Positions 31,215 through 50,297 of a stretch of 64,000 bases of DNA are shown piece after piece; within the stretch, counting starts at the first letter, position 1; each line of letters opens with the position of its first letter. The notes beneath the pieces were generated by a model. The model ran no database searches and was not told the origin of the DNA. It was given only the letters and a program-made list of their open reading frames with translations. Where the stretch lies: NCBI GenBank assembly GCA_050251055.1, contig JBFWNL010000004.1, forward strand, positions 192,001-256,000, written 5' to 3'. The DNA is from Bacteriovoracia bacterium (GTDB lineage: Bacteria; Bdellovibrionota; UBA1018; JBFWNL01). The translations under genes were made by a program, and so were the position numbers.

Positions 31215-31218
31215 TGGT

Positions 31219-32211: not shown

Positions 32212-32217
32212 TCAGCC

Positions 32218-35724: not shown

Positions 35725-36492
35725 ATGGAAGGGAAACCGCTAACGGAGAACTGCAAACGTGTTTACGATTCGAAAGAGCATGTCTGTTTTGGCATCAGTC
35801 CCTTTAATAGCTATTTTTCCGAACGGCGTCTTCGCGACCTGGCGCATTGGGGACGCTCCCATTTCCAGTCGATGCATTTTTTTGTGCCAGATGTACCCGC
35901 CGCTTACACGCTTGAAGCTTTAGGCTACACGCCTGAGCGTGCCGCCTGGAAAGCTCGCCGCCAGGCAAATTGGCTAAGAAACAAAATTATCCGTTCCCTC
36001 ATCAGCCTCAGTTTCACTCACCACGAATCAGAAAAAATGGTCTTGGATTGGGAAAAACTAGTCAGCATTTCCCGGTTTCAAGAAATTTATAGGGAGATTC
36101 AAGGTCTTTTTCGTAAAGATTCCGCCTTTCGAGGTGCGTGTATCGAAGCTTCGCATTGGATTTTAGAAAAGCGAGTTGCGGATACTTTAGCTCTTACTGA
36201 TGAAGCTCTTTTACGAGCTGTTGAGTATTTTCTTGCCGAGATCCCCCTCTTCCTTGATGCAGCAAGCATTTTAAATCAAAAAGCATCGGTCTTCGCTTAC
36301 CACCAGAGTATTCCATTTCTCGAAAATCTTTATCGAAACCAGTTCTTCTGCCAGGTCCCATCCGAGCGACAGGGCTATGTCATTCTTGCGGCAAAAAAAG
36401 AAAATGAAATAAGGGACGCAAATTCACTTCACTTGCAGCCGCCTATCTCTGAATCAGGGAATTATGAAGTGTCTCTTCCATCTGAAGATTAG
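35725..36492 (+). CDS. tRNA-dependent cyclodipeptide synthase (NYH subfamily)
   Basis: HVCFGISPFNSYF (HxxxGISxxNxxF), YFLAEIP (YxxxExP), AYH; GGAGG RBS. Confidence 0.9.
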   Translation: MEGKPLTENCKRVYDSKEHVCFGISPFNSYFSERRLRDLAHWGRSHFQSMHFFVPDVPAAYTLEALGYTPERAAWKARRQANWLRNKIIRSLISLSFTHHESEKMVLDWEKLVSISRFQEIYREIQGLFRKDSAFRGACIEASHWILEKRVADTLALTDEALLRAVEYFLAEIPLFLDAASILNQKASVFAYHQSIPFLENLYRNQFFCQVPSERQGYVILAAKKENEIRDANSLHLQPPISESGNYEVSLPSED

Positions 36493-36499
36493 ATCTTCG

Positions 36500-36721
36500 T
36501 TATGTTTTTTGGTTTCGATGAGTCCCGACACTTCGGCGAATCAAAAAAACTGTTAATGAGATGAGAGTCGCTATCAAAACAAGACCGATTAAAACCATGA
36601 CCCACATCATGATTCCACCCTAGAGGCCCTGACACATTGGGCACATTCCAATCATTCCATCCCTACCGATCTCTTGCGCAATATTTAGTAATGGAAAAAG
36701 AACGAGATAGCATGGAAACAC
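36500..36721 (-). pseudogene. small Met/Cys-rich membrane protein interrupted by an in-frame TAG
   Basis: Manual translation ...GMIGMCPMCQGL*GGIMMWVMVLIGLVLIATLISLTVFLIRRS...; stop at 36620-36622. Confidence 0.4.
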
Positions 36722-36727
36722 GTTCTA

Positions 36728-37081
36728 TCAAGCGGCGCGCCGCGTTTCCATCCGGCGGCAAGACTCTGCACATTTGCGACAGATATCGGCACAGCGCTGC
36801 ATTTCTTTGTCATCGGTGAATTTTGCGCAATCTTCAGCGCATGCATCACATAAACGCGTGCAAGTCCGGCAGGCATCCGCATAGAAATTTGAGTTGCGAA
36901 GCATAAAGTTCGCACTTGTTTGGCAAATCTCGGCACAATCCAATAAAAGACTAATGTGTTTCGTTTCAGCGTGACGTCCACCCTTATCGAGACAGTGCGG
37001 CAAAATTTCGTTACAAACCGCGTGGCAGCCAAGACAATTATCGATACATTCTTGAAAATCTTTTTGTGACATATGAGGCAT
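36728..37081 (-). CDS. four-helix-bundle copper storage protein (Csp3/DUF326)
   Basis: Repeated CxxxCxxC pattern (CIDNCLGCHAVC, DCAEIC, CRTC..LC.AC...C, RCADICRKCAESC); no signal peptide. Confidence 0.9.
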   Translation of the reverse strand: MPHMSQKDFQECIDNCLGCHAVCNEILPHCLDKGGRHAETKHISLLLDCAEICQTSANFMLRNSNFYADACRTCTRLCDACAEDCAKFTDDKEMQRCADICRKCAESCRRMETRRAA

Positions 37082-37159
37082 GGTTGATTCTCCTTTGATG
37101 GTTTCAAATAAATTTCAATTTTTTAGTGGGCCACGTATGGACCAGATCTCGCTGAGTGC

Positions 37160-37175
37160 TGCAATTTCAATACCA
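37160..37175 (-). promoter_or_regulatory. sigma-54 (-24/-12) promoter for csp3
   Basis: TGGTATTGAAATTGCA (GG-N10-GC) about 80 bp upstream of the start codon. Confidence 0.55.
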
Positions 37176-37350
37176 ATGTACTTCGTTGCCAACCAAATTT
37201 AATATTTTAAACTGACAATAAGAGCTAGATACCGACTTTGGTTAGTAAAGTTAGAGAAAATTAACCCAAAGCTTTTCTGAACGAAAACCTCAAATCAAAC
37301 AGCTCGGTGATGAGGACCCCACTCAAAAGTCCTTCTCCGATCCCATATTT

Positions 37351-39543
37351 TCAAAGTAAAGCGACTTTCTGTTTTTGCGCTTGTTCAACACTTCCTTGCG
37401 ATTCGAAGCATGCGATCACTTGATTGAGATCCTTCCGAACAATTCTTTCGATCCAGTACATTCCTTCGGGATACTGTTCTTTAAAATGCTGTTTTTCATA
37501 TCCCGTGTTTAAAACGATTCGTTTGAATCCATAATTGTCGTAAAGATCGCGCGCATGCTCTTCGCCCTTCTCACCAAACCGTAGACGAGAATCAACTACG
37601 ATGACTTTATTTTTATCGAGTAGATGAAGATGTTCTCGCATTTCAGCAAAACTTCGATAGAAAAGAAGATTCTTTTTCTTTTCGCGGGCTAATTTTCTGA
37701 GATGGATTACATGAAGGTCGTCGTCGTCAATTACAACTCCATCAAAAGGTTGCGAAACCTCTAAGCGATTCACCGAGAAATCTATTTTTTCAAGCAGGAT
37801 TTTCGGCAAAAGCTTGATTCCTTTTCGATCACATTCATCCAAGAGACGTGAATTACCATAATTATGAGTCAGAAGAATTGATCGCTTTTCTAAACCGAAG
37901 CGTTCAATCGTATCTGTTCCTGTAATTTTTGCATCGCCGAGATCATAGTCCATGAAGACAAAATCCGATTGAGGAAAATTTGTCTCTTTAGCCCATGATT
38001 GAAAGCCCTCAAGGTCATGGAAAACAGTAGTTTCTATTTTGGGCGCCTGTCTTTTAATAAGATCATCGACCTTCTTTGCGAACTCTCTATCGTTTTCGAC
38101 AATAATTACCCGATGAAATCCATTCAAGCTCGTCGTTCCAACAAAAGAGCGTCGTGGCGCGTATTCCAAAAAAGCCAGGCGAATGGTTGTTCCTAGCCCT
38201 TCTTTAGATTCAATAGAAAGCTCGCCATCATCTTTTCGGACAATTTCAATCGCTTTGCTAAGACCTTTGCCTCGTCCTGCTCCACCTTTCGTTGAAAATC
38301 CGTACTGCTTTACGTCCTCTAAGAGTCCTTCGGGAATTCCGCAACCGGTATCTTCAATGAATATAGCGGCCAAATCGTTCGTTCTTTTCGTTGAGAGAGT
38401 GACACTTCCAGTTTCTTGGATGGATTCAACTGCATTATTCACAAGATTGGAAATAGCGGTTCCAAGTTCAACGGGATCTACCTTCACAAAAAGCCCAAGA
38501 TCGCTGGCTAAAAAATCAAAATGAATTTGCAGCCGATCCTGATGGCTGTACTCAATAGCTTTCAGTTCAACAAGATGGGCGATAAAAGCATCGAGTTGCA
38601 AAACGAAACTGCGTTCGACTTCATCAAGGCTCTCGGCTCCTACTTTCTGGAGCTGCTGCATTTTGACAGAAATATCGCTCGCCGCTTTCTGAAGGATGAG
38701 AAGATCATCTTCACCGATTTTTGAGCGAAGATTTTGGATCGAATGGAGCAAAATGCTCGTGTAAGATTTCAAATCATGAGCCAGTTGAGCCGCAAGCTTT
38801 CCGCGTTCCTCTTCGACCGACTGATTTAAAAGAGCTGATTGCTGCCGTTCAATACGATCCTGAAGTAAATCGAATTTATCTTTAATACTTTTTGTTTCGA
38901 CGAGCCTTTCTGATTCATAAGCGATCTTACTGTTCGAGTCGTTTCGGTCGAAATGCTCAATATAGTCACGCAGGTTTTCCAGAGGTTGGCTGATTCTTCT
39001 AAGTACAGCTTTCAAACGAAGGAGGAGAATCAAAAATAGGGCGATTGAGATAATGAGAGTCGTAAAAAACGTGTACCTAATGACTTGTTCCCGGATTGAA
39101 TTTGGAAAAGCCACTTTCACCGTAAAGTTTTCGGGACGATCTGGATACACAGAGAAAACTGACTGTTGAACGACGTAAGGAGATAAAAGAACATCGAGAT
39201 AACCCGTTTCCTTTAAATCTCGAATATCTCCACTTGCAAGTTCGGAAACAACCAACGGTCGAATCGCGTCGCCCGTGATGGCAATAGAGAGAACATCAGA
39301 GGTTTCGAGCGTTTTCGAAAGAATACCTCGAATCTCAATTTCATCGCCGATTTGAATTTTGGGCTTAATGATGGCTACCAATTGTTGCGTAAGAAGCCTG
39401 ATTTTACTGTGCTCACTATTTGAAAAGGCAACCGTAAGCACGCATGCGATCAAAGGCACTACTAGAAGAATCGAATAAACGAGAATGCCAAAAGAGGAAG
39501 AGCGAAATAAAAGTTGAAGAGTTTGGTGTTTATCTTTTCTCAT
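37351..39543 (-). CDS. membrane hybrid sensor histidine kinase with two C-terminal receiver-like domains
   Basis: Two TM helices with a periplasmic loop; H-box LAHDLKS, N-box NLVNNA, DTGCGI, GKGL; receiver-like RVIIVEND..FMDYDL and VVIDDD..VVDSRL. Confidence 0.9.
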   Translation of the reverse strand: MRKDKHQTLQLLFRSSSFGILVYSILLVVPLIACVLTVAFSNSEHSKIRLLTQQLVAIIKPKIQIGDEIEIRGILSKTLETSDVLSIAITGDAIRPLVVSELASGDIRDLKETGYLDVLLSPYVVQQSVFSVYPDRPENFTVKVAFPNSIREQVIRYTFFTTLIISIALFLILLLRLKAVLRRISQPLENLRDYIEHFDRNDSNSKIAYESERLVETKSIKDKFDLLQDRIERQQSALLNQSVEEERGKLAAQLAHDLKSYTSILLHSIQNLRSKIGEDDLLILQKAASDISVKMQQLQKVGAESLDEVERSFVLQLDAFIAHLVELKAIEYSHQDRLQIHFDFLASDLGLFVKVDPVELGTAISNLVNNAVESIQETGSVTLSTKRTNDLAAIFIEDTGCGIPEGLLEDVKQYGFSTKGGAGRGKGLSKAIEIVRKDDGELSIESKEGLGTTIRLAFLEYAPRRSFVGTTSLNGFHRVIIVENDREFAKKVDDLIKRQAPKIETTVFHDLEGFQSWAKETNFPQSDFVFMDYDLGDAKITGTDTIERFGLEKRSILLTHNYGNSRLLDECDRKGIKLLPKILLEKIDFSVNRLEVSQPFDGVVIDDDDLHVIHLRKLAREKKKNLLFYRSFAEMREHLHLLDKNKVIVVDSRLRFGEKGEEHARDLYDNYGFKRIVLNTGYEKQHFKEQYPEGMYWIERIVRKDLNQVIACFESQGSVEQAQKQKVALL

Positions 39544-40838
39544 TTTATTTCCTTTGCCATAGCCAAAGGACGTTCCAGCGAAATCGTTACGAATGAAAAC
39601 AGAAGGGACAGTATAACAACGGATACAAATGCTTCTTTTATAGATGGAGCTCCGTTTCTAAGCGTACTGATATAAAGACTGTATAATCCGACCCAGAGAT
39701 AACCGGGAATATTTTGAAAACTTAAGGCAGTCGCATAGTCTTGTCGTTTTACTTCTCCCATCAATTGATTCATCGACATATTTTGAATTGCGGACGTAGC
39801 AGTATGAAACAATGCGCCAAAAACAAAAATATAAGTGATCTGCACAAATACCGGAGTGTTCCCATAAAGGGCCAAGTACCCAAGGCTCATAACAAGAGTG
39901 AGCCCATAAAAAATGAGAAGATACTGTCTTGGAGTTACACACCGAATGAGCACTGGCAATAAATGTCCTTTTAAAATCCATCCGAACGCCGAGTAGCCGA
40001 GCATAAATGCCGCCATGAACGACCACTGAATGAGTTCAGCGCTTTGGTTATGCTCTCGACCTAACGATAGGGGGAGATAGCCAGCAATTATGACAGTCAT
40101 CATCCAGAACGAAAGATTGTAGATCGTCGCAATTTTTGCGCGAGGTGCTAAAAAGGTCACTTTAAAAATGTCTTTAAGAGGCGACACATGGAGCTGTTTG
40201 TCGCGATCTCCGAGTTGAAGATAATCCCGCCACAACGTCACAATACACGAAGCGTAGAGAGCGATGCCTATGAGAAATGTATGAGGAAGCCACTGCTTCT
40301 GTTCGAACACCCATGCCAAAGCGAAAGCCGCGATAACAGCAATCGTCGTAAAATATTTTCCGTAGTTTTGACTCGTAGTCAAACTCGTTGCAGCTACCTT
40401 CTCGTGATCATCATTCAAGCAACGCACCTTTATCGCATCCTGGTAAAAGGCTTCAATGGAACCAGAGCTAAGGGGCTTTGCTATTCCAATGAGAATTCCA
40501 TGAGCAATGAAAAGAATTCGCGCCATCGCACCATCGAAAACAAGCGCTACATACACACAGGCGAGCCCACTCATCACGAGTAACAAACTCAAAATGATAG
40601 AAGGAATTCGTCCAATGCGATCAGATATATAACCGCAAGGAACCTCTAGTAAGCCATTCAGTGTGAATTCAATAAGAGTAACGAGAGCTACGGTGTCTGC
40701 GGGAACCCCAAAGGAAAGCGCGAGGACACCAACAATTACTCGAAACAAAACGGAGTTGAATTGTACCGCCGCTGCATAGAGCGCGCGAAAGACTCCGAGG
40801 CGAATCAAAATGTCATGCACTGACATTTCTTGTTTCAT
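39540..40838 (-). CDS. MFS transporter (putative peptide exporter)
   Basis: LEVPCGYISDRIGR MFS motif A, SGSIEAFYQD; about 12 TM helices. Confidence 0.85.
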   Translation of the reverse strand: MKQEMSVHDILIRLGVFRALYAAAVQFNSVLFRVIVGVLALSFGVPADTVALVTLIEFTLNGLLEVPCGYISDRIGRIPSIILSLLLVMSGLACVYVALVFDGAMARILFIAHGILIGIAKPLSSGSIEAFYQDAIKVRCLNDDHEKVAATSLTTSQNYGKYFTTIAVIAAFALAWVFEQKQWLPHTFLIGIALYASCIVTLWRDYLQLGDRDKQLHVSPLKDIFKVTFLAPRAKIATIYNLSFWMMTVIIAGYLPLSLGREHNQSAELIQWSFMAAFMLGYSAFGWILKGHLLPVLIRCVTPRQYLLIFYGLTLVMSLGYLALYGNTPVFVQITYIFVFGALFHTATSAIQNMSMNQLMGEVKRQDYATALSFQNIPGYLWVGLYSLYISTLRNGAPSIKEAFVSVVILSLLFSFVTISLERPLAMAKEIK

Positions 40839-41689
40839 CGTGCGCTCACCCTCGACGAAGGAGATTTCGAGTCTAACAACTCGTCTCGAATGATATGAAT
40901 AATGTCTGTGATATGCTCATCAAACCTGAGAAGGCCGCGCCCGCAAATAGTTTCGTAATCTTTTTGGAAAGTCGACGTGAATCTTTCAAGAATTCGATAA
41001 GCGCCTTGGTCATACTTTCGATCAATCTTCTTACTTCTTAAAATTCGAAGAGCTAAGCCAAGCATACACGCTTGAGCAAAGGCACCATGATAAATGCCAA
41101 TCAGGGGTCGATCAATATCCCGAATCGCAGAGTATCTTGTTTCATCCCAAGGCTGGTCAAAGATTTCTTGCTCGTCGTGCGTGGTAATTACGATGTTTAA
41201 ATAATGATGTCCAAGCTCATGGACTAAAATTTCAGCCCACTTTACGGGGCAATCACTATCCATCCGATAGAGAATTTGGCCAAACGTTTGTGGATCTGAA
41301 GCAGATTCGAAGGGATCATCTATTGTGGTCTGCGCCAAACGAGGCTGAATGGCTTTAACAATTTTAAAGTATTCAGGCCACGTAGACGCGATCAGACTGA
41401 TTGCTTCCTGATAGATTTTTTCTTTTTCCGAGTAGATTTCACTTTCATGAGATCGGAAAATATCATTTCCAGTGACTAGCTTCCTGCGCTTTTGATCACG
41501 CAAGAATAGCTCACCCCACTGTTTAGATCTATTGAGATCTTCAGCCGAAAAATAACACGAGGACACAATCGGTAGACTTAATTTCGAAAGGTCTATTTTT
41601 GAAATTTCTGGCCGGGAAGAGAGAATCGCACGAACTCCCTCTTCCCGCAGAAACTCGACATAGGAACTGATCATTCCCAAGTCAAACAT
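40835..41689 (-). CDS. aKG-HExxH peptide-modifying enzyme
   Basis: EILVHELGHHYL plus downstream YSAIRDIDRPLIGIYHGAF; probable start ATG 41689 after the peptide ORF. Confidence 0.82.
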   Translation of the reverse strand: MFDLGMISSYVEFLREEGVRAILSSRPEISKIDLSKLSLPIVSSCYFSAEDLNRSKQWGELFLRDQKRRKLVTGNDIFRSHESEIYSEKEKIYQEAISLIASTWPEYFKIVKAIQPRLAQTTIDDPFESASDPQTFGQILYRMDSDCPVKWAEILVHELGHHYLNIVITTHDEQEIFDQPWDETRYSAIRDIDRPLIGIYHGAFAQACMLGLALRILRSKKIDRKYDQGAYRILERFTSTFQKDYETICGRGLLRFDEHITDIIHIIRDELLDSKSPSSRVSAR

Positions 41690-41700
41690 CTTCGAAACTC

Positions 41701-41778
41701 TTAGTAACTTGCGCGAGCTTCGCCGATTAGTTTGTTCCTGAGAATCGCGAGATTGAACGAGCGCTTTCTGTTTTTCAT
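41701..41778 (-). CDS. 25-aa putative precursor/pheromone peptide MKNRKRSFNLAILRNKLIGEARASY
   Basis: Read manually: AAAGGAGG RBS 8 nt before ATG 41778, TAA at 41701-41703, 11 nt before the HExxH start. Confidence 0.75.
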   Translation of the reverse strand: MKNRKRSFNLAILRNKLIGEARASY

Positions 41779-41811
41779 GGCTTTTGCCTCCTTTCATTTG
41801 ATTGACGTTTT

Positions 41812-43308
41812 TCATTTACGCACCAGATTCGCAATTTGAACGTCCTGGTACGAAAAGTCCCAAAACTTCACACTCATATTTTCCGAGTTCTTCACGGATA
41901 GCCCTCGGCGGTACCAGGTGGTGAACACGGGATAGAACAAAGGAATCGCAGGAATATCTGCAAAGAAAGTATCTTCCATTTGGTGTAGCACTCTGAGCTG
42001 GTGATCTTTCGCCGTTTGGTTCTCATAATCAATGAGCAAACGATTGAGCGTAGGACTGTAATAGCCAGAAAACTTTTCAATTATTCTTCCGAGGTAGCCA
42101 TCAAAGGTCGTAGATGGGTCAAAATTAATCGGAGAATCACCTTTCAGGATCATATGGAGATGACCCTCGCGAAATCCGCGAAGTACATCGTTAAATGGTA
42201 GAAACTGAACCTGGAGGTTTAGGCCGATGTCTTTGAACCGACCAACAAGGTATTTTTCAACCGCCATGTTCCCTTTAAATTTTTCTCGCGCGCCTAAAAC
42301 GACATTGCGTTCTTGAAGCGTCGTATTTTTTTCGATTAAAGCTCTCGCCATTTCAAGATCGATAAGATGACGTTTCTCGCGATGGCCCACATATCCACGC
42401 GGAATCATGCCGCCAGCGGGAATATCTTCTCCTCCTGCATATTCATGGAAAGCAATCGGATCGATGACGCTTGCGACAGCAAGCCGATTTTCCTTTTTCC
42501 GAAATATGCCGTGTTTGAAAGAAAAGACTAGAGCGTAAGTTCCAGCAATTTTCTGACTGTAAGAAAGTCCTTTCGGTAAAACCGATCGATTAACCTGTGA
42601 TTCAACGTCCGTAATCGTATCGAGCTCTTCCTTCAAGAACTTATTGATGGCTGTTTCAGAGTCTAATTTTTGGTAAATGATCTTTTGGAACTTCGCTCGC
42701 GCATCAAATCGTTCAGCGATGATTTGATCATCTCCAATTCGCACGATCTTGTAAGGACCGGTTCCCAAATAGTTCCCGTCCATCTTTTTAACGATGCAGC
42801 CCTTAGCGCTTGCCAATTTTTTCATTAGCAAAGGATAGTTCTTATTTTGAATCCGAATAACAAATCGAGAGTCATCGAGTGTTTGAAATCCATCACATGA
42901 TGTGCGTTGTATGCAGCCCCCAAGAGCCTTGAATTGTGAAAGGATTTCGTTTTTGTTTTTGAAAGCTTCAAGAATTGAATTTAGGACGTCTTGCGATCGA
43001 ACTGGAGAACCGTCATGAAACCGCTTGTTTCTATCAATCTCGAATTCAATCTCATTCGTCTCACGGCGAATTGTCCAACGAGAAGCAACCTCGGGGATGG
43101 GCGAAAGACTTTCATCCACGCCAACCAGGTGCTCAAATACATTATCAATCACCTTATTCGCATTGATTTCGTTCCCGCGCTTAAGCTCAAGATCGGGAAT
43201 CGCCGTAATCGGCACTCTAAGTACCGTGTTCGATGACACGGAATCGTTTTCCTGCGTACAGGCAGAAAATATTCCTATTGCTAAAGAAAAAAACAGAAGT
43301 AAGCGCAT
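41812..43308 (-). CDS. family-5 (oligopeptide-type) solute-binding lipoprotein, no cognate permease
   Basis: Lipobox FSAC, VFEHLV, FHDGSPVRSQDV, GTGPYKI, IPAIPLFY. Confidence 0.88.
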   Translation of the reverse strand: MRLLLFFSLAIGIFSACTQENDSVSSNTVLRVPITAIPDLELKRGNEINANKVIDNVFEHLVGVDESLSPIPEVASRWTIRRETNEIEFEIDRNKRFHDGSPVRSQDVLNSILEAFKNKNEILSQFKALGGCIQRTSCDGFQTLDDSRFVIRIQNKNYPLLMKKLASAKGCIVKKMDGNYLGTGPYKIVRIGDDQIIAERFDARAKFQKIIYQKLDSETAINKFLKEELDTITDVESQVNRSVLPKGLSYSQKIAGTYALVFSFKHGIFRKKENRLAVASVIDPIAFHEYAGGEDIPAGGMIPRGYVGHREKRHLIDLEMARALIEKNTTLQERNVVLGAREKFKGNMAVEKYLVGRFKDIGLNLQVQFLPFNDVLRGFREGHLHMILKGDSPINFDPSTTFDGYLGRIIEKFSGYYSPTLNRLLIDYENQTAKDHQLRVLHQMEDTFFADIPAIPLFYPVFTTWYRRGLSVKNSENMSVKFWDFSYQDVQIANLVRK

Positions 43309-43311
43309 AAG

Positions 43312-43530
43312 TTATTCGCCCACCTCTTTGAAATTACATTTGAGTTGACCCCACTTTTCCAAAAGCTGATCGCCTCGACGGCAGGCGAGATTGAGTACAG
43401 TTTCACAATACTCAGGATCGTTGGTTAAGTTGGCACGAACCTGCTCAATCGTTGAAATAATGGAATGAAGATCAGCTTGAAAATCATGAATCATGTCTTC
43501 TGCTGAGAGTTTATTTTTCGCCATCATCAC
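43312..43530 (-). CDS. small stand-alone HisKA/DHp-like protein
   Basis: MIHDFQADLHSII resembles the H-box LAHDLKSYTSIL of the kinase in this operon; coupled to the RR gene. Confidence 0.55.
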   Translation of the reverse strand: MMMAKNKLSAEDMIHDFQADLHSIISTIEQVRANLTNDPEYCETVLNLACRRGDQLLEKWGQLKCNFKEVGE

Positions 43531-44897
43531 AACTCGGCCTCCTTCAATTCATCGAGAAGACTGGTAACCTTCTTTTGTGAATAACCTAAGTGCCGCATGA
43601 GAGGACGAATGGGACGATCCTTCCCAAGCTTTCTCCGGAAATGATCTGCAACTTCTTTCTCCAGTTCAGCGAGAAACGCTTTAAGACCAACCTCTTCGAC
43701 GTACTTGATCTGTCGTTCGGTCAGGAGATTGTAAGCATGCTTGCCCGGATATGAGTTTGTTGCAATTTTATGAGGAAGATCTTCAACAGAAAATACAGGC
43801 TTTTTTGTTTTCGCTTTGGACTTCCAAAATTCAAAAAATTCTCTCTCGTTACCCGGCCAATCGTATTCGAGCAGCGCTTTCTTAGCACTTGGTCGGATCG
43901 CCATTCCACGGCCTTCTCCAAAATTCTTCTGCACATGATTAAGGAGAAGTTCAATATCCTGGCGACGTTCTTTGAGCGGTTTGAACTTTACCGTGACCCC
44001 CGAGATGCGATTAAAGAAATCTTCACGAAATTGTTTAGCAGAAATTTTTTCGTGTAATTCTTCGCATGTCGCCGTGATGAGCTTGAAATCAGAATAAAGT
44101 CGCTCGTTTGATCCAACAGGTGAGAAATGTCCGTTTGCCAATGGAACAAGAAGAGTGTGTTGCATACGAGTGCCAATCGTTCCGATTTCGTCAATAAAGA
44201 GCGTTCCTTGATCAGCCTGCGCAATTTTTCCGATTCGCTTTTTATGTGCTCCCGTGAAAGCGCCGTCGACATGCCCAAGCAATTCGGATTGCAGCAATGT
44301 ATCGGACAAACTATTCGCGTTGATTTCGACAAAGCGATCCTTATGACCGTGCCATCCTTCATGCAATATTTCGGCTAAAACGCTTTTGCCTACGCCGGAA
44401 GGACCCGTGATGAGAATAGGTAACTTTTTAATTCCCATGCTCTCGACAAGAATATCAAACTGCTGAAGATGATCGGGGTCTTGGGTAATCATCTTTTGAG
44501 CAATGAGTTTACGAAGTCTCGTCTTCTGTGATGAACCACGATAGTTCAAAAGAATTTCATCAACGGCTGTGGCCTTAAAAGGTTTCGTTAAATAGTCATC
44601 GCATTCTTTTCCGTATCCTTCTTCCACATAAGCTTCTTCGCGATGGCCCGAAAGAATAACGCTGTAAACGCCCTTCTTCTTGAGAAGCGGAATCAGATCG
44701 AAACCGGCTCTTCGTTCATCGAGATCAAGATCAACGAACGAAAGATCGAACTGTCCGTTTGAAATTTTGTCGAGAGCCTGAGCCTTGGAGGCAGCCTGTT
44801 GAATTTCGTGACCTTGATTAGAAAGCTGCTTCGCAAGATTGTGTCGATGCAGATCATCATCTTCGACAACTAAAATTTTTAACGACGATTGTTTCAC
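43527..44897 (-). CDS. sigma-54-dependent response regulator (NtrC-family enhancer-binding protein)
   Basis: Receiver ILVVEDD..FVDLDL..KPF; Walker A GPSGVGKS; GAFTGA loop; LFIDEIG; FREDFFNRI; WPGN. Confidence 0.93.
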   Translation of the reverse strand: MKQSSLKILVVEDDDLHRHNLAKQLSNQGHEIQQAASKAQALDKISNGQFDLSFVDLDLDERRAGFDLIPLLKKKGVYSVILSGHREEAYVEEGYGKECDDYLTKPFKATAVDEILLNYRGSSQKTRLRKLIAQKMITQDPDHLQQFDILVESMGIKKLPILITGPSGVGKSVLAEILHEGWHGHKDRFVEINANSLSDTLLQSELLGHVDGAFTGAHKKRIGKIAQADQGTLFIDEIGTIGTRMQHTLLVPLANGHFSPVGSNERLYSDFKLITATCEELHEKISAKQFREDFFNRISGVTVKFKPLKERRQDIELLLNHVQKNFGEGRGMAIRPSAKKALLEYDWPGNEREFFEFWKSKAKTKKPVFSVEDLPHKIATNSYPGKHAYNLLTERQIKYVEEVGLKAFLAELEKEVADHFRRKLGKDRPIRPLMRHLGYSQKKVTSLLDELKEAEL

Positions 44898-44958
44898 TAC
44901 TCAGACACTCCAAACTTTCGATTACGCGTAGCACAAAATTTTTAGTCTCCAAAATAAA

Positions 44959-44992
44959 TTCGTATCACTACACGTATTACTAGTGATACGAA
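44959..44992. promoter_or_regulatory. perfect 12-bp inverted repeat, candidate enhancer (UAS) for the sigma-54 activator
   Basis: TTCGTATCACTA-N10-TAGTGATACGAA, about 110-140 bp upstream of the sigma-54 site. Confidence 0.65.
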
Positions 44993-45099
44993 ATCGAGCA
45001 TCCGCAAACCCGCATTCTATCTGACTCAGAGAAGACAAGATCATGAATCTACAGACTTTTTAAGAAGTTGTGGCTTCGACCAGCATCACTTTTCTTGCT

Positions 45100-45115
45100 C
45101 GGCATAAAAAATGCG
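45100..45115 (+). promoter_or_regulatory. sigma-54 (-24/-12) promoter facing the transfer region
   Basis: CGGCATAAAAAATGCG: GG at 45101-2, GC at 45113-4, 10-nt spacer; 45 bp before ATG 45160. Confidence 0.65.
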
Positions 45116-45159
45116 ATTGACTCCCTTTGTGTCGAAAAAAATCAAAAGGAGTAAGAGCA

Positions 45160-45369
45160 ATGGAACTTCAATACGGACAAACCAAAAATCAGAACCAGAT
45201 CAAGAAACCCTCGGACATTTTCAAACACTGTCCTCACTGCAAAAGTCGCGACCAATTTCGATTTGATGGCGAAGTCTTTTGCAATTCGTGCGGATGGAAC
45301 AGTGTCCTTGTGAGTGCGGAGTGTTCCTACGGTGTCGCTTCTCGAATGAGAAAGCCACTTCCATCATAA
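45160..45369 (+). CDS. small zinc-ribbon protein
   Basis: CPHC...CNSCGW; AAGGAG RBS. Confidence 0.65.
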   Translation: MELQYGQTKNQNQIKKPSDIFKHCPHCKSRDQFRFDGEVFCNSCGWNSVLVSAECSYGVASRMRKPLPS

Positions 45370-45384
45370 GCCGCACGCACTTCA

Positions 45385-45424
45385 CCTTTCACTAAATAGG
45401 GAAAACAACAGTCAGTACAGACAG
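45385..45424 (-). promoter_or_regulatory. conserved motif, copy A (faces the signalling operon)
   Basis: Minus strand reads CTGTCTGTACTGACTG-TTGTTTT-CCCTATTTAGTGAAAGG, nearly identical to copy B. Confidence 0.55.
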
Positions 45425-45451
45425 TGGTCATCAGACCTAAGGAGCTAATGC

Positions 45452-45988
45452 GTGAAAAATAATGATCAATTTCATAACTCGAAAATAAACCAAACAGACA
45501 TTCCATGGAAAGACGCGAACGGAAATCTAAAACCAGATAAAGAAATTAAAAAAATGGCAGCCCAGTGGAAAGCGTCTACTTGGGAGGCTTTTTTGGCAGA
45601 CACTGGAATGTCAGAAAACATTGGAAGTGATACTGAAAACGAAGTTTTGATAGCAGATACTGCGGGCTACGAAAGATTTTCTGCGGATGAATCCCTTAGC
45701 AGTCTTTTATCCGACATCGAATCTTTCCCAAGAGTCGCGAAAAGCTTAAAGAAAGCAATCTCGAAACTTTCTCCTCGGCAAAAGGAACTCGTCGGGCTGT
45801 ATTATTGGGAAGGTCTCTCACAGATGCAAATTGCTGCCACTCTTGGGATCACCCAGCAGACAGTAAGCATCCAACTCGTCCGAGCCATTCAGAGACTGCG
45901 CATCGAGATATTTCTCGGAATCAAATCTGACTCGCCGGCGCCTGAAAAATCTCAATCCGAGCATTCTGTCTGTATGCAAATTGGATAA
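45452..45988 (+). CDS. sigma-70 region-4 domain regulator
   Basis: AISKLSPRQKELVGLYYWEGLSQMQIAATLGITQQTVSIQLVRAIQRLR; no region 2 recognised. Confidence 0.85.
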   Translation: MKNNDQFHNSKINQTDIPWKDANGNLKPDKEIKKMAAQWKASTWEAFLADTGMSENIGSDTENEVLIADTAGYERFSADESLSSLLSDIESFPRVAKSLKKAISKLSPRQKELVGLYYWEGLSQMQIAATLGITQQTVSIQLVRAIQRLRIEIFLGIKSDSPAPEKSQSEHSVCMQIG

Positions 45989-46020
45989 GAGAAATAATTC
46001 CAACGAGTTGGGTGGTGGGC

Positions 46021-46059
46021 CTGTCTGTACAGACTGTGCATTCCCCCTATTAGTAGAGG
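46021..46059 (+). promoter_or_regulatory. conserved motif, copy B (faces the tra operon)
   Basis: CTGTCTGTACAGACTG-TGCATTCC-CCCTATTAGTAGAGG, 34 bp before ATG 46094. Confidence 0.55.
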
Positions 46060-46093
46060 CCCATCACTTCAACTTCAAATCAGAGGAGACTCA

Positions 46094-46264
46094 ATGTCAC
46101 CAAAACAAAAATTGAAGGCGCAAATTCAAGCGTGGATGAGAAAGCTTAAACGCAGTCTTGCAAATGAACAAAAAGCTCATATCTATGCTCACGTACAAGA
46201 CTTTCGAACTTACAAGGATGAGTTAATCAGCAAATACTACCACCTTCTTCCGAGAAATTTTTAA
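46094..46264 (+). CDS. small basic hypothetical protein, 56 aa (MSPKQKLKAQIQAWMRKLKRSL...)
   Basis: Read manually; GAGGAG RBS; stop abuts the next gene. Confidence 0.6.
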   Translation: MSPKQKLKAQIQAWMRKLKRSLANEQKAHIYAHVQDFRTYKDELISKYYHLLPRNF

Positions 46265-46648
46265 GTGCGGATGTCTTTACCCTGGGCGGAGGAGATCGCA
46301 ACAGACCCCAGAAAAATCCAAGAGCTGATCGAAAATAAAGCTTTGGAAGATTGGTATTCAGAACATTCAGGAGAGTCAAAAGTGCGGAAAGTCGACGATT
46401 CTACATTCAGTTTCCTTTCGAATGAAAAACGCAGAATTCGAAAATTCATTTCCAAGCTTTCGGATGTGGAGCAAGTCATCGTGTATTTACGCTATTGGGA
46501 AAATCTCATGACGATCGAAATCGCATCCGTTGTAGGACTTTCTGAAAATAAAATTCATGACCTTTTAGAGCGTGCCATAAAGAAACTTAGAATTTTTTAC
46601 ATTCAGGAATTGAGCAGAGTGCAAGCCACAGCGCTTGCCTGCGTATGA
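46265..46648 (+). CDS. second sigma-70 region-4 domain protein
   Basis: LSDVEQVIVYLRYWENLMTIEIASVVGLSENKIHDLLERAIKKLR. Confidence 0.8.
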   Translation: MRMSLPWAEEIATDPRKIQELIENKALEDWYSEHSGESKVRKVDDSTFSFLSNEKRRIRKFISKLSDVEQVIVYLRYWENLMTIEIASVVGLSENKIHDLLERAIKKLRIFYIQELSRVQATALACV

Positions 46649-46703
46649 AGGACACTTACATTTTTATTCATCAACAGAATTTTAATTCAAAGGATTTTAA
46701 TTA

Positions 46704-47072
46704 ATGGAAAATACCGAACAACGAAATGATCGTGGACATGAACTTTTTTGGATGAACCCCGTGACGGGAAAACGCCTTCATGCAGGCAAAGCTTTTTATG
46801 ATGAGAAGTTTTGCGAATATCGACTCAAAATCGATGAAGCCTCTGAAGAGAAACAATATTATTTGAAACCCATCGGCCTCATCAACGACGAGCTTCGCTA
46901 TCGCTTAGAACAGGTCATCAAAAAGGGCGGAAAGTTTCATCACCGCGAAGAAAAGGGAGATGGGAAAAGTAGCGATGCCACCGGAGGCGAAGTCTATATC
47001 GATTTTGGCTCCAGCATGAAAGTGCTCGTGCTCAGTTTCAATCCCCATTCCAAGAGAAAGGACGTTGCTTAA
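46704..47072 (+). CDS. hypothetical protein (ICE backbone)
   Basis: ORF with RBS inside the tra operon. Confidence 0.6.
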   Translation: MENTEQRNDRGHELFWMNPVTGKRLHAGKAFYDEKFCEYRLKIDEASEEKQYYLKPIGLINDELRYRLEQVIKKGGKFHHREEKGDGKSSDATGGEVYIDFGSSMKVLVLSFNPHSKRKDVA

Positions 47073-47077
47073 AAAAC

Positions 47078-47380
47078 ATGACCAAGTCCACATACGGTTG
47101 GGTTTTTATGATCGGATTTATCGGAATGCTTTCACTGATGCTCTTAAGTGAGCCTGCGATGGCGTTTGGCTTTGAAAGTAAAATGCAAAATCTCACAGGC
47201 CAGCTCATCAATACGGTGCTGCCTTTAATGTCGATTCTAGGTCTTGTGTACGCAGCGATTCTCGCGCTTTCGGGCGATGCCGCTGCCAAAGCAAAAATCA
47301 TTACGGTGATCGCTGTCTCTGTGGTCGGGTTTCTCGCTCCCGCCATCATTCAGTGGTTACAACGCGCGACGGGTAACTAA
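47078..47380 (+). CDS. VirB2/TrbC-like pilin
   Basis: Signal peptide ending PAMA, two hydrophobic helices, position before virB3/virB4. Confidence 0.75.
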   Translation: MTKSTYGWVFMIGFIGMLSLMLLSEPAMAFGFESKMQNLTGQLINTVLPLMSILGLVYAAILALSGDAAAKAKIITVIAVSVVGFLAPAIIQWLQRATGN

Positions 47381-47698
47381 ATGGAAGAACTTCGTAGTTC
47401 GACAATTCATCGAAATCTCGATTCCAAAATCAAGATCGTGGGCATGGAGGTCCACGATCTCCTTTTGGTTTTGATTTTAGCAGCGACCATGAATCTTCTT
47501 TTTGGAAGAACGAGTTTCGCTTTTATTTTTGTGATCGTTCTTCCAGGAATTTTGGGACTCACACTTTATTTTGTGAAACGAAATAAGCCCGAAGGCTTTT
47601 TATCAGACTACGTTCGCTATCATCTTTCGCCCGGTTGGTTTTCGGCAGGAATGAATGTCAAAGATTTCGAAACTAGACCAAGGAAAATTTATTCATGA
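47381..47698 (+). CDS. VirB3-like membrane protein
   Basis: IHRNLDSKIKIVGME, two TM helices, KRNKPEGFL; position. Confidence 0.7.
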   Translation: MEELRSSTIHRNLDSKIKIVGMEVHDLLLVLILAATMNLLFGRTSFAFIFVIVLPGILGLTLYFVKRNKPEGFLSDYVRYHLSPGWFSAGMNVKDFETRPRKIYS

Positions 47699-47868
47699 AC
47701 GAAATGATTCCAACGAAATTTAAGTTCGATGGTTTGAAAACAAAGTGCTTCGAGATCCTTTCCTTTGTGCCCATCGTGCTTTGTTTTCTAGGTTGGCTCG
47801 CTCTCGTCATCGGCTTCTTTATGGAGGCCTCGAAATTCGTAGAACTTCAGCAGGGACTTCCGCGATGA
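47695..47868 (+). CDS. 57-aa single-TM protein between virB3 and virB4
   Basis: Read manually: MNEMIPTKFKFDGLKTKCFEILSFVPIVLCFLGWLALVIGFFMEASKFVELQQGLPR; ATGA overlaps at both ends. Confidence 0.6.
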   Translation: MNEMIPTKFKFDGLKTKCFEILSFVPIVLCFLGWLALVIGFFMEASKFVELQQGLPR

Positions 47869-50297
47869 ATTTTACATCACGCGCCTTAGCGGACCGGATT
47901 CCGCTTTGGCATTTTGAAGGGAATTCCGCTGTATTTTCGGACGGCTCACTCGGAGCAGGCTTCAAACTCAAAGGTTTTGATGCCAGTGTTTCCGGCGTTG
48001 AAAGTTTTAATCAATTTGCTTTTGCGCTTGAAAACCTCATTCATACGGCTAGGGAAGGTTTGACGTTACAGCTTTATTACAAGGTGGGTCATGATGTCTC
48101 ACTTCTTCTCCATAAACACGAGGAGCTAACAGGATCAAAAGAAGGGGCCTATCAAGAAGTGGCGTACGCTCGTTTTGAAGATCTTCAAGCGAGAGCCAAG
48201 CAAGGAAAATTCTTTCAGGCGGATATTTATCTTTTTATTCGCAGTGAGGGCCAAAAATATCAGAAGAAGAAATTTTGGGAGGCTGAAAAGAAGTTTATTG
48301 CGCTGACTCAAAAGCAATTTTTAGAACAAAAAGAAAAATTTGAGCGCGATCTAAAACAAATGGAATCGTCTCTGACTCAGGCTGGCTTAGAACCGATCGC
48401 TCTGAATGCGCGAACATGGGTCCGTCTTTTGTTTGATTCGCTGAATCCGGGCCGCGCGGATAAAATTGGATATCCTCAGTTCAACTTCGAGGATGAAGTT
48501 TTTCCTCAACCCATTTCGCAGCAAATTCTTTTGTCGGATGTGATCGTCAACGAAGAAAGCGTTCAGATTAACGAAGAGCATTTAAAGTGCTTGAGTCTCA
48601 AAACTCTTCCCGAGGCGAAGTCTACGATTGGCATGGTGCTTCCACTTCTGGAATTGCCCTTTGCGTATGAAATCTCCCAAACCATCAAAATTTGCGATCA
48701 GAAGAGAGAAATCGATAAACTCCACGTTCAAAGGCGTGTCACGCATTCCTTTGCGAGTGGTTCCGGAAAAATGAGTGATTTGGAGTCCGAATCAAAACTC
48801 GGACACATCGAGGAACTTATTCGTGAGCTGTTAGAAGGCTCCGAAAAAATTGTGGCTTCGAGTGTCAATGTTCTCATCAAAACCAAAGATCGAAATGAGC
48901 TTCAGGAGCGATCCGATGAAGTCTTGAAAGCCTTTCGGTCTGTGAATCAAAGCGAAGGAATCGCAGAAACCCTTGGAACCTTCGATGGTGTTTTAGCATC
49001 GCTTCCAGGCTTGGGGCTCACATTCAGAGATAAGAAAATGAAATCAAGTAACGCGACACACTTGATGTCGCTCTACACCTCATGGGGCGGCAATGCGCGT
49101 CCCATCTGCCTGCTTCCAAATCGCGACGGCGAACTGGTGCGCATCGACCCCTTTGCTTCGAGTCTCCCGAACTGGAATGGCCTTATCTTTGGAGGAAGTG
49201 GTGCGGGAAAAAGTTTTACGATTCTGCATCTCATGCTCATGTTCTATGGGCAAAGGCCAACGCCAAAAATTGTTTGGATTGATAATGGAGCGTCTTCTCA
49301 AAAGCTTCTCGAAGTTTTGGACGGAGAATTCGTTGATCTCAATATTAAATCATCCATCCGAATTAACCCATTTGATTTGGAGCCAGGGCTCGATGCACCA
49401 ACTCCTTCTAAAATCAAACTGATCTTAGCAGTCCTCGAAAGTATTCTGAAAGAAGGTCCGAATACGGGACTTCCCAAGCGGAACAAAGCGCTTTTAGAAG
49501 AAGCTATTTTTCAAATCTATGAAATGAAAAGAGGAGACGTACCGACACTTTCAGATTTGAAAGTCTTTCTGAAGGCTCATTCCAATCTTGAAATGAAAGC
49601 CTATGCGGATACCCTCTTTTCTTGGACGGGAGAAACCGCCTACGGACAAATGCTCGATGGAAAAACGAATATTGCTCTTCAAAAGGATCTGATCACAGTT
49701 GAAACGAAAGGGCTCGATGATTATCCCGATTTGCAAAATGTTTTTCTTTTGCTTTTTACGGATTATATCAAATCAGAAGCATCCCGAGATAAAAGTAGGC
49801 CCTATCTTCTCATTCTCGATGAGGCCTGGAAAATGTTTCAAACGCCAAGTGGACTTCAATTTACGATTGAAGCTTACCGGACGTTTCGAAAATTCTTTGG
49901 AGGAATTTGGTGCATTAGCCAAAATTACAAAGACTTTCTTTTCAATCAGGAAATTAGAAATGCCATTTTTCCGAATACGACGAGCACCTTTGTTTTAAAA
50001 CAGAGAGCGATTGACTGGAAAGATTTTGCGGAAACGCTTCAACTCAATGAAGCAGAGATTGAGGCGATTAAAAGTATCCAGGTAAAAAAAGGGGAATATT
50101 CGGAAATCTTCTTTATGCAAGATACCGGACGATCGATTCTCAGAATCGTTCCTGATCCCTTGGGCTACTATATTTGCACGAGTGATCCCGTCGATAAGAG
50201 TCTTATCGAAGAGCAAAGACAGAAAAATCCAGAGCTTTCACAGCTTGAAGTCTTAAAGCTTCTTGCCAACAAACGAAGGGAACATCTTTATCAATAA
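47865..50297 (+). CDS. virB4: VirB4/TraC-like conjugation ATPase
   Basis: NGLIFGGSGAGKS Walker A, LLILDEAW Walker B, RTFRKFFGGIWCISQ; start ATG 47865. Confidence 0.9.
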   Translation: MNFTSRALADRIPLWHFEGNSAVFSDGSLGAGFKLKGFDASVSGVESFNQFAFALENLIHTAREGLTLQLYYKVGHDVSLLLHKHEELTGSKEGAYQEVAYARFEDLQARAKQGKFFQADIYLFIRSEGQKYQKKKFWEAEKKFIALTQKQFLEQKEKFERDLKQMESSLTQAGLEPIALNARTWVRLLFDSLNPGRADKIGYPQFNFEDEVFPQPISQQILLSDVIVNEESVQINEEHLKCLSLKTLPEAKSTIGMVLPLLELPFAYEISQTIKICDQKREIDKLHVQRRVTHSFASGSGKMSDLESESKLGHIEELIRELLEGSEKIVASSVNVLIKTKDRNELQERSDEVLKAFRSVNQSEGIAETLGTFDGVLASLPGLGLTFRDKKMKSSNATHLMSLYTSWGGNARPICLLPNRDGELVRIDPFASSLPNWNGLIFGGSGAGKSFTILHLMLMFYGQRPTPKIVWIDNGASSQKLLEVLDGEFVDLNIKSSIRINPFDLEPGLDAPTPSKIKLILAVLESILKEGPNTGLPKRNKALLEEAIFQIYEMKRGDVPTLSDLKVFLKAHSNLEMKAYADTLFSWTGETAYGQMLDGKTNIALQKDLITVETKGLDDYPDLQNVFLLLFTDYIKSEASRDKSRPYLLILDEAWKMFQTPSGLQFTIEAYRTFRKFFGGIWCISQNYKDFLFNQEIRNAIFPNTTSTFVLKQRAIDWKDFAETLQLNEAEIEAIKSIQVKKGEYSEIFFMQDTGRSILRIVPDPLGYYICTSDPVDKSLIEEQRQKNPELSQLEVLKLLANKRREHLYQ

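Follow-up and report, generated by a model that had tools for sequence, protein, structure and literature searches.

A conserved short gene paired with a stand-alone HExxH enzyme in Bacteriovoracia, and a candidate peptide signalling cassette around it

Does a 25-codon open reading frame (ORF) lying just in front of an HExxH enzyme gene encode a real peptide, and if so, what would the peptide be for? The question is raised by a stretch of 64,000 nt from contig JBFWNL010000004.1 of a Bacteriovoracia bacterium. This whole stretch is called the window here, coordinates given without a locus label refer to it, and the peptide cassette lies on its minus strand. A sequence-only reading of the window had proposed a hidden precursor peptide at this place. 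Comparison with related loci shows that these 25 codons form a genuine conserved gene. We further propose, with somewhat better than even confidence, that its 25-residue product would be the substrate of the adjacent Fe(II)/alpha-ketoglutarate (aKG) HExxH oxygenase, and that this product would be exported and sensed by its own cassette. The bacteria, which belong to a predatory lineage, would thereby probably make a small modified peptide that serves as a signal.

The short gene and its conservation

Related loci were collected by alignment-based scans of genome and metagenome contigs and by whole-genome searches of 401 genomes of the phylum and of two further orders. A single-sequence search for enzyme relatives in genome contigs gave 105 pattern matches, none of which was confirmed; the alignment-based scans succeeded. 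In the labels used below, G stands for a genome (G000 is the window's own) and L for a collected locus or contig. The enzyme side yielded 13 loci of one subfamily, namely G000, G139, G199, G124, G214, G487, G263, G165, G053 and the metagenome contigs L010, L011, L012 and L013. The peptide side added G041 and G024, which brings the collection to 15 loci with 14 distinct peptides. Locus L038 belongs to G165, L039 to G053, L040 to G139 (G139:C25), L044 to G041 and L045 to G024 (G024:C30). Two alignments were built, A1 of the enzyme and A2 of the peptide (11 sequences).

The peptide gene (41701..41778, minus strand) consists of 25 codons and a TAA, with its ATG at 41778-41776 and its stop codon at 41703-41701. 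Translation returns the same 25 residues that the sequence-only reading had given for this position, and two further details of that reading were confirmed. A strong ribosome-binding site, the purine-rich Shine-Dalgarno octamer at 41787..41794 (minus strand, read 41794-41787), stands 8 nt before the ATG, and the TAA is followed after 11 nt by the ATG at 41689 that opens the HExxH frame. Against the chance background of 196 ORFs of at least 20 aa that overlap positions 36000-48000 of the window, such a short ORF is not significant alone, and the reality of the gene was therefore decided by the related loci.

In each of the 15 related loci, the HExxH gene was found to have directly before it an equivalent short ORF with a Shine-Dalgarno site of its own, the presence of such ORFs being a check that the sequence-only reading had named. 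All 11 homologous ORFs that were checked have a purine-rich Shine-Dalgarno site 5-10 nt before the start. The homologous precursors are 23-32 aa long, apart from a 70-aa form in G024. In alignment A2, Met1, Leu10, Glu20 and Arg22 are invariant and Ser24 is nearly so, and the peptides have in common a 17-residue block that extends from Phe8 to Ser24 in the numbering of the window peptide. Over this block, pairwise differences among 10 sequences (the near-duplicate L013 was left out) are distributed 300/167/479 over the three codon positions, and 238 of the 613 differing codon pairs are synonymous. Synonymous variation is found at the invariant Leu, Glu and Arg codons as well, with five different codons used for Leu and four for Arg. 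Judged by these codon counts, the peptide block evolves like coding sequence.

The pattern of conservation also bears on how the peptide should be divided. The sequence-only reading had separated a leader-like hydrophobic stretch from a short C-terminal core, a division that the alignment does not bear out: Phe8 to Ser24 is conserved as one block with no clean split, and the invariant residues are Leu10, Glu20 and Arg22 rather than the terminal Ser-Tyr of the proposed core. The basic N-terminus that it described is a property of the window's own clade, the other members being acidic there.

The peptide profile is specific for these loci. Searched against the window's 3.77-Mb genome, it gave one match (E 3.8e-11) and nothing else at E <= 1. 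Among the 401 phylum genomes, 12 had a match at E <= 0.01; eight of these, the strong ones, are the profile's own training loci and match by construction. Two weak matches outside the training set, in G041 and G024, both lie directly upstream of a protein that scores above the TIGR04267 cut-off (46.1 bits in G041 and 54.4 bits in G024) and that the enzyme profile had missed at threshold. The remaining weak matches, in G230 and G192, fall inside open frames of 259 and 269 aa. In G024, the precursor (L045 ~6752-6964, plus strand) is a 70-aa ORF carrying the conserved block twice, followed by a terminator-like hairpin and then by the TIGR04267 gene. Multi-core layouts of this kind are typical of the precursors of peptides that are made on the ribosome and modified after translation (RiPPs). 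A precursor gene conserved as a pair with an adjoining tailoring enzyme gene is the arrangement by which a RiPP locus is recognized, and on the evidence of gene order and alignment this pair is present in 15 of the 15 loci.

None of the 11 aligned peptides matched a Pfam or NCBIfam family at E <= 1. A search of L001-L035 with a regular expression for the peptide gave no match outside the subfamily, and inspection by eye revealed no comparable upstream ORF at the distant HExxH loci L014, L023 and L028. In an exact look-up in a public protein collection the window peptide was absent, as were 5 of 9 homologous peptides; the other four are present and unnamed.

The same public collection carries the window's enzyme as a protein of 326 aa, and this choice of start leads to a first alternative: the short ORF could be a chance open frame, the true enzyme being the 326-aa form with its low-complexity N-terminus. 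At the start of the long ORF (41815..40835), its ATG and the TGA of the solute-binding-protein gene upstream lie in a four-base overlap, as is common in coupled genes, and the public gene call preferred this start. However, a search of 5.8 billion proteins returned 14 matches among 594 candidates, consisting of the window's own 326-aa call and 13 homologues (166-297 aa, 41-67% identity), and the 42-residue extension is present in 0 of these 13. Four homologues start at the residue aligned with the ATG at 41689, one starts 5 residues later, and one carries 12 unrelated extra residues. In G199, G124 and G139, stop codons close the HExxH frame a short way upstream. Since the homologues do not have the extension and the frame is closed in these three genomes, the 42 N-terminal codons (41690..41815, minus strand), which overlap the peptide gene in another frame, are spurious, as the sequence-only reading had suspected in stating that the ORF track over-extends the HExxH ORF. 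The peptide frame, by comparison, is conserved with synonymous changes in every locus, and a chance origin appears to us extremely improbable. Those refuting conditions named by the sequence-only reading that were examined did not refute it. For annotation, this means that the peptide is missing from the public gene calls for the window and for 5 of 9 homologous loci, and that the window's enzyme gene is given a wrong start in them.

The HExxH enzyme and its predicted complex with the peptide

The gene next to the peptide encodes a stand-alone HExxH enzyme of 284 aa (40835..41689, minus strand) with the motif His157-Glu158-x-x-His161. Residues 94-232 match TIGR04267 (aKG-HExxH-type peptide beta-hydroxylase; IPR026337) with 58.7 bits against a cut-off of 40 (E 7e-16), and in a search of the whole genome this was the single TIGR04267 locus. 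A language-model look-up returned the same family name with a score of 0.97; a Pfam scan of the 284-aa enzyme gave no family. Profile search of 1.84 billion representative sequences found 476 proteins at E <= 1e-3, including 32 at E <= 1e-30. The close relatives align over the full length and the remainder only from about residue 85 onward, which indicates that the N-terminal ~85 residues are specific to a small subfamily. Six residues (Ser131, His157, Glu158, His161, Arg194 and His201) are invariant in 61 aligned sequences, distant members included. In G139 (L040), the HExxH gene is apparently split by a run of N in the contig, with no frameshift or stop codon.

The AlphaFold2 (AF2) model of the enzyme has a mean predicted local distance difference test (pLDDT) score of 95.7 and a predicted template modelling (pTM) score of 0.92. 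In a Foldseek search, the best match was 8s5f, the crystal structure of the ChlB HExxH domain (E 1.7e-6, template modelling (TM) score 0.66; over the chains of this entry, E 1.7e-6 to 1.2e-5 and TM 0.61-0.66). The second was 22ob (SjiH) with E 6.5e-4, and all others, with zincin peptidases next, had E > 0.2. A profile search of the PDB sequences with the enzyme gave no match at E <= 1, so that ChlBH was reached by the fold search only, and a literature search found no relevant paper on SjiH. By hidden Markov model (HMM), invariant residues and modelled fold, the enzyme is a member of the TIGR04267 aKG-HExxH family. The invariance of Arg194 and His201 throughout the wider family fits oxygenase chemistry, in which these residues would have their roles.

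To our knowledge, all characterized aKG-HExxH enzymes work inside multi-enzyme clusters. The window's enzyme belongs, by HMM and fold, to the same family as ChlBH (a radical S-adenosylmethionine (SAM) fusion), BipH/BpmH, PflC/PosC and PesO; unlike in the known clusters, it is the sole tailoring enzyme, with no radical SAM enzyme, multinuclear non-haem iron oxidative enzyme (MNIO), cytochrome P450 or protease. Among the ORFs of at least 90 aa between 29904 and 52452, there is no radical SAM or protease gene, in agreement with the sequence-only reading, which had seen neither an adjacent radical SAM enzyme nor a dedicated protease. According to passages of PMC12636437 and PMC13060819, enzymes of this family act on adjacent ribosomal precursors, and the targets they name are Asp and His (ChlBH), Gln (PflC/PosC) and Pro (PesO), with Phe also listed. 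An excerpt of PMC12707348 describes BipH as a participant in biphenomycin biosynthesis. As in these systems, the precursor here is small and adjacently encoded, and in the model its N-terminal part would serve recognition and its C-terminal part would be modified. It differs from them in its length (23-32 aa, with 70 aa for the two-core form of G024) and in belonging to no Pfam or NCBIfam family. Further differences are that the invariant Glu and Arg of the substrate are not known targets and that the cluster is joined to a sensor system.

A complex of the enzyme (A1), the peptide (A2) and Fe(II) was predicted in three runs, together with three controls, in which the partner was one of two unrelated 25-residue peptides or an unrelated enzyme-sized protein. 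The complex, the modelling of which the sequence-only reading had proposed as a check, scored 0.93 in each run, against 0.02 for the best control. In calibration, 58 of 80 solved complexes and 2 of 110 mismatched pairs attained this score mark; this calibration covered partners of 30 residues and more and alignments not made by the authors, so that the present 25-residue partner with its author-made alignments falls outside it on both counts, which tells against the weight of the score. The three runs had at least 93% of their contacts in common, and the pLDDT of the partner was 81-83. In the model, peptide residues 6-10 and 12-14, which include the Phe-Asn-Leu stretch, touch enzyme residues 6-17, 46-47 and 165-173, the first two of these segments being the subfamily-specific N-terminal helices. 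Peptide residues 17-25 touch the invariant loop 126-134, residues 154, 157, 158 and 161 of the HExxH helix, and residues 195-205 including His201. The predicted complex lays the peptide across the HExxH site and lends the support of a model to its binding by the enzyme.

Following the model, Phe8-Asn9-Leu10 and Ile12-Arg14 would dock on the enzyme's N-terminal helices and on helix 165-173, and the Gly19-Glu20-x-Arg22-x-Ser24 segment would lie across the HExxH/His201 metal site, where the enzyme would oxidize one of its residues. The docking stretch resembles the FNLD box that a part of PMC5294574 describes for the leaders of class I lanthipeptides: the peptides carry Phe/Ile/Val, Asn/Asp/Ser and Leu in their N-terminal half, and most of those outside the window's clade also have an Asp or Glu after the Leu. 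This FNLD-like stretch is the best-defined enzyme contact in the model. The likeness is one of a short motif only, since the peptides, unlike class I lanthipeptides, have no Cys and their Ser/Thr residues are not conserved as targets. Assignment of the window peptide to the class I lanthipeptides was rejected, there being no LanB or LanC among the neighbours scanned and no Cys in the peptide.

A second alternative is that the short ORF is a regulatory upstream ORF that acts on the HExxH, MFS (major facilitator superfamily) and kinase genes behind it by translational coupling or ribosome arrest, its product being no substrate at all. In most loci, it ends 4-28 nt before the HExxH start, and some HExxH genes have no good Shine-Dalgarno site of their own; these two features make translational coupling likely, and the Gly-Glu-x-Arg-[Ala/Gly]-Ser block bears some resemblance to the arrest motif of SecM. 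However, the conserved block ends anywhere between 1 and 9 codons before the stop codon, a hairpin stands between the ORF and the HExxH gene in G053 and G024, and the motif occurs twice within one G024 ORF. In addition, the predicted complex would place the conserved residues in the catalytic cleft (controls 0.02), and the enzyme family acts on small adjacent precursors. A purely regulatory role is, in our view, very improbable.

If the peptide is a substrate, side-chain hydroxylation (+16 Da) is the most likely chemistry, and we put it at about one half. Alpha-hydroxylation with backbone scission in the manner of PosC/PflC would be a less likely course; oxidative or hydrolytic scission, summed over all readings and including the one in which the enzyme is first of all a peptidase, comes to about one quarter. 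An extract of PMC13060819 calls the chemistry of aKG-HExxH enzymes currently unpredictable. As described in a section of PMC12636437, PflC and PosC use oxidation to break the backbone at the Ala within a C-terminal motif of four residues and leave an amide.

These precedents bear on a third alternative, in which the HExxH protein would be mainly a peptidase, hydrolytic or oxidative, and a short unhydroxylated fragment would be the active species. Its zincin-like fold is consistent with this, as are two observations from the same section of PMC12636437, namely that PflC cleaves a truncated substrate hydrolytically and that PosC/PflC oxidatively remove a C-terminal tetrapeptide at Ala. Among its scanned ORFs, moreover, the window has no separate protease, and in its peptide the small residues Ala21 and Ala23 flank Arg22. 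Larger residues are nevertheless found at these positions in some members (Val, Ile or Leu at 21, Val or Ile at 23), and a Val substitution abolished PosC cleavage in an experiment reported in that section (PMC12636437). The invariance of Arg194 together with His201 fits oxygenase chemistry instead, and we regard a predominantly proteolytic role as improbable.

With a single 284-aa enzyme, a single substrate of 23-32 aa, three invariant substrate residues and a confident structural model, the pair is a very small system and, for this reason, would be a convenient test bed for peptide recognition and site choice by the HExxH fold.

The cassette around the pair and its possible function

In the window, the pair is part of a tightly packed set of genes on the minus strand in the order regulator, small His protein, solute-binding protein (SBP), peptide, HExxH enzyme, MFS transporter and kinase. 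The sequence-only reading gave no account of this exporter and sensor cassette.

The first gene (43527..44897) encodes a sigma-54-dependent response regulator of 456 aa (Sigma54_activat 1.5e-46, Response_reg 1.3e-17) that combines a receiver with an AAA+ domain and has its GAFTGA loop at residue 212; rpoN is present in the window's genome. Its stop codon is overlapped by the start of the next gene (43312..43530), which encodes a small protein of 72 aa with an invariant His15. Such a small His protein of ~70 aa is located between the regulator and the SBP in 8 loci. It has no Pfam family, no Hpt match and no Foldseek match at E <= 0.001; AF2 models it as a helix-turn-helix hairpin (pLDDT 82.7), and its non-significant Foldseek matches include the dimerization and histidine phosphotransfer (DHp) domains of histidine kinases. 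It may have a phosphotransfer or DHp-mimic role.

The third gene (41812..43308) encodes an orphan family-5 SBP of 498 aa (SBP_bac_5 1e-31) with a hydrophobic N-terminus followed by Cys17, which resembles a lipoprotein signal. There are no ORFs for an ATP-binding cassette (ABC) permease or ATPase in the window cassette, and against the NCBIfam Opp/Nik/Cnt equivalogs the protein scores far below the cut-offs (best 34.8 bits against 650); a role as part of an Opp/Nik/Cnt ABC importer was rejected on these two grounds. Beyond the peptide and enzyme genes follows an MFS transporter of 432 aa (39540..40838; MFS_1 1.6e-12), the presumed exporter, which has many hydrophobic segments and a start that overlaps the HExxH stop. 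The last gene (37351..39543) encodes a membrane histidine kinase of 730 aa (HATPase_c 2.2e-15), in which hydrophobic segments at ~11-44 and 153-185 flank an outside loop of ~110 aa.

This order is repeated in G139, G199, G124, G214, G487, L011 and L013, and the full set of precursor, enzyme, exporter, kinase and regulator genes is present in 8 loci; SBP and kinase are also found in G165, G053 and G041. In 14 of 15 loci, the peptide/HExxH pair has an SBP gene as its neighbour; in three of these, a truncated contig shows only the C-terminal end of the SBP. A kinase is present in all 11 loci that have an SBP and enough contig, a sigma-54 regulator in 8 of the 11 with enough contig, and an MFS or MFS-like gene follows the HExxH gene in 11 of 13 loci with contig beyond it. 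The exceptions to the last are G041 and G024, the latter with an MFS gene ~2.3 kb further on. The divergent loci have different orders. In G165, the genes are a trypsin-like protease (L038 5106-6185, plus strand), SBP, peptide, HExxH, MFS, kinase and an MFS-like gene. In G053, they are peptide, HExxH, an MFS-like gene, an amidohydrolase (L039 5751-7037, minus strand), SBP and kinase, and in G041 peptide, HExxH, SBP and a kinase of 1003 aa. SBP and kinase thus stay linked to the pair despite the rearranged order in G053 and G041. The G165 protease and the G053 amidohydrolase are candidates for peptide maturation and have no counterpart in the window.

From this organization, we suggest that the cassette would act as a self-contained circuit that produces, modifies, exports and senses a peptide. 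The modified product, probably trimmed to a short fragment, would be exported by the co-transcribed MFS transporter; in the periplasm, the fragment would bind the orphan family-5 lipoprotein, from which the signal would reach the sigma-54 response regulator via the membrane histidine kinase. The reality of the gene, its conservation, the family and fold of the enzyme and the synteny are shown by the comparisons above, and binding, chemistry, processing, export and sensing are inferred from them and from the model. Receptors of the SBP family usually bind short peptides or small chelates. Because the exporter is an MFS pump and the receptor belongs to such a family, the mature species is probably a short fragment, and the hydrolase genes of G165 and G053 point in the same direction. 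The bip and pfl clusters contain MFS transporters too, as described in parts of PMC12707348 and PMC12636437.

Two known types of signalling system provide analogies. In Gram-positive bacteria, the comQXPA and agrBDCA loci each combine a precursor, a single modifying or processing enzyme, a membrane kinase and a regulator. The window cassette would follow the same logic of production, modification, export and sensing, with no sequence relationship to them. It differs in that its carriers are Gram-negative, in the addition of a periplasmic binding protein and an MFS exporter, in having a sigma-54 activator rather than a regulator of the ComA/AgrA type, and in the proposed oxidative modification in place of prenylation or thiolactone formation. 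In Vibrio, the LuxP-LuxQ-LuxU-LuxO chain consists of a periplasmic binding protein, a membrane kinase, a small His protein and a sigma-54 regulator, and the chain suggested here looks alike by analogy, including the receiver-like region of the kinase in the window's clade. Unlike LuxP, the binding protein belongs to family 5 (peptide/nickel/opine type), and unlike LuxU, the small His protein is a ~70-aa hairpin with no Hpt match. Identification of the regulator as a LuxO orthologue was rejected, its score being 149 bits against an NCBIfam cut-off of 800. A loose two-dinucleotide sigma-54 promoter pattern has 24 matches in the window against 22.5 expected and is uninformative alone; in G053, a -24/-12-type element was seen by eye ~75 nt upstream of the peptide ATG.

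Several observations weigh against the proposal of an oxidized and self-sensed peptide. On the chemical side, the invariant Glu and Arg are not among the targets reported so far for the enzyme family, and Asp, His, Gln and Pro are all missing from the window peptide. Depending on the peptide, Arg22 is preceded by Ala, Val, Ile, Leu, Ser or Thr, and this variation counts against a PosC-like requirement for Ala at a cleavage site. The window cassette has no protease gene, and a peptide of 25 residues would be large for an MFS exporter. The sensing part is an association. The C-terminal receiver-like region of the window kinase reaches 22.4 bits for Response_reg, below the Pfam cut-off of 30.2; in G139 the receiver scores above it with 33.4 bits, and no receiver match was obtained for the kinases of G214, G487 and L011. 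The small His protein carries no Hpt signature and also occurs together with kinases that have no receiver. Finally, a sigma-54 regulator was not found beside the G165, G053 and G041 loci, and within 14 kb of the G024 pair there is neither an SBP nor a kinase, a JmjC oxygenase and an MFS gene being present instead.

The G024 locus in particular suits a fourth alternative, in which the biosynthesis would be the same and the product an antimicrobial or other effector. The SBP would then be a lipoprotein for immunity or binding, and the part of the two-component system would be only to regulate production, much as nisin has the immunity lipoprotein NisI and regulation by NisRK. G024 places the pair in an ordinary-looking biosynthetic cluster, with JmjC as a second oxygenase, an MFS gene and no sensor; the carriers belong to a predatory phylum, and the trypsin-like and amidohydrolase genes of G165 and G053 suggest maturation to a small bioactive fragment. 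On the other hand, the peptides are short, linear and free of Cys and have a single tailoring enzyme, the SBP is of a ligand-binding family and stands without an ABC partner, and a kinase with an outside loop accompanies the pair in all 11 loci that have an SBP and enough contig. We consider a product that is solely an effector unlikely, and note that autoinduction and bioactivity can coexist, so that the two readings are not mutually exclusive.

Taken to its full extent, the proposal of a self-sensed peptide amounts to a complete peptide-pheromone circuit, the like of which has not yet been described for Gram-negative bacteria. In it, a lone aKG-HExxH oxygenase would act at Glu-x-Arg, a residue type unreported for the family; after MFS export and capture by a family-5 lipoprotein, the peptide would be read into a sigma-54 activator by way of a kinase and a DHp-like mini-protein; the module would move between Bdellovibrionota lineages on mobile elements; and it could couple cell density to element transfer or predatory behaviour. 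With all of these parts taken jointly, we advance this picture as tentative, with rather less than an even chance of being correct. Were the sensing part true, Gram-negative predatory bacteria would possess, in this cassette, a rare example of peptide signalling that is genetically self-contained, with a family-5 solute-binding protein serving as co-receptor of a histidine kinase. The enzyme family and the logic of RiPP biosynthesis are known, and the precursor family, the one-enzyme architecture and the built-in sensor module are new. A literature search found no description of the peptide family or the cassette; the similarity network in the supplement of PMC12636437, which lay outside this search, might include the subfamily unnamed.

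Distribution and genomic surroundings

The enzyme search of the 401 phylum genomes gave 20 matches at E <= 1e-8, and strong subfamily matches were confined to 7 genomes including G000. At the same threshold, the 116 genomes of the window's own order yielded G000 and one distant match, G053. The 60 nearest relatives gave weak matches only, and the cassette was not found in close kin among the genomes searched. In the order of G124, 3 of 14 genomes matched with no new locus, and in that of G214, 3 of 238 matched with one new locus, G487. Two carriers are Bacteriovoracaceae, and the genomes are within the window's phylum. As far as these searches extend, the cassette is rare and patchy. The window stretch itself is present in three DNA runs of one landfill-metagenome study, two of which may be its source; no RNA run was listed as containing it.

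Genes for mobility accompany several copies. Beside the window cassette lie conjugation genes on the plus strand (47078-50297) that encode a TrbC/VirB2-type pilin and a TraC/VirB4-like ATPase. Homologues of CagX, TrbI and TraG are located beside the cassette of G041 (L044 7988-11473, plus strand), and a transposase gene beside that of G053 (L039 10091-10888, plus strand). These conjugation or type IV secretion and transposase neighbours suggest horizontal spread of the cassette, and such a mobile-element context fits its patchy distribution.

At the kinase end, the gene just downstream of the kinase (36728-37081, minus strand) encodes a Cys-rich DUF326/Csp1-like four-helix-bundle protein. One of the 24 loose -24/-12 matches (37161-37175, minus strand) lies ~80 nt upstream of the Csp1-like start, the pattern being at chance frequency in the window. 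The Csp1-like gene could be a target of the sigma-54 regulator. About 0.9 kb beyond the cassette at its kinase end, a gene on the opposite strand encodes a tRNA-dependent cyclodipeptide synthase (35725-36492, plus strand; TIGR04539 242.7 bits, Pfam CDPS 3e-63). It is preceded by a resistance-nodulation-division (RND) efflux set (29904-35484, plus strand) composed of an outer-membrane factor, a CusB-like adaptor with a heavy-metal-binding domain and an AcrB/CusA-type pump of 1088 aa; this set and the Csp1-like gene hint at a metal-handling neighbourhood. At the other end, between the cassette and the conjugation genes, two genes on the plus strand (45452-45988 and 46265-46648) encode small proteins with sigma-70 region 4 domains only.

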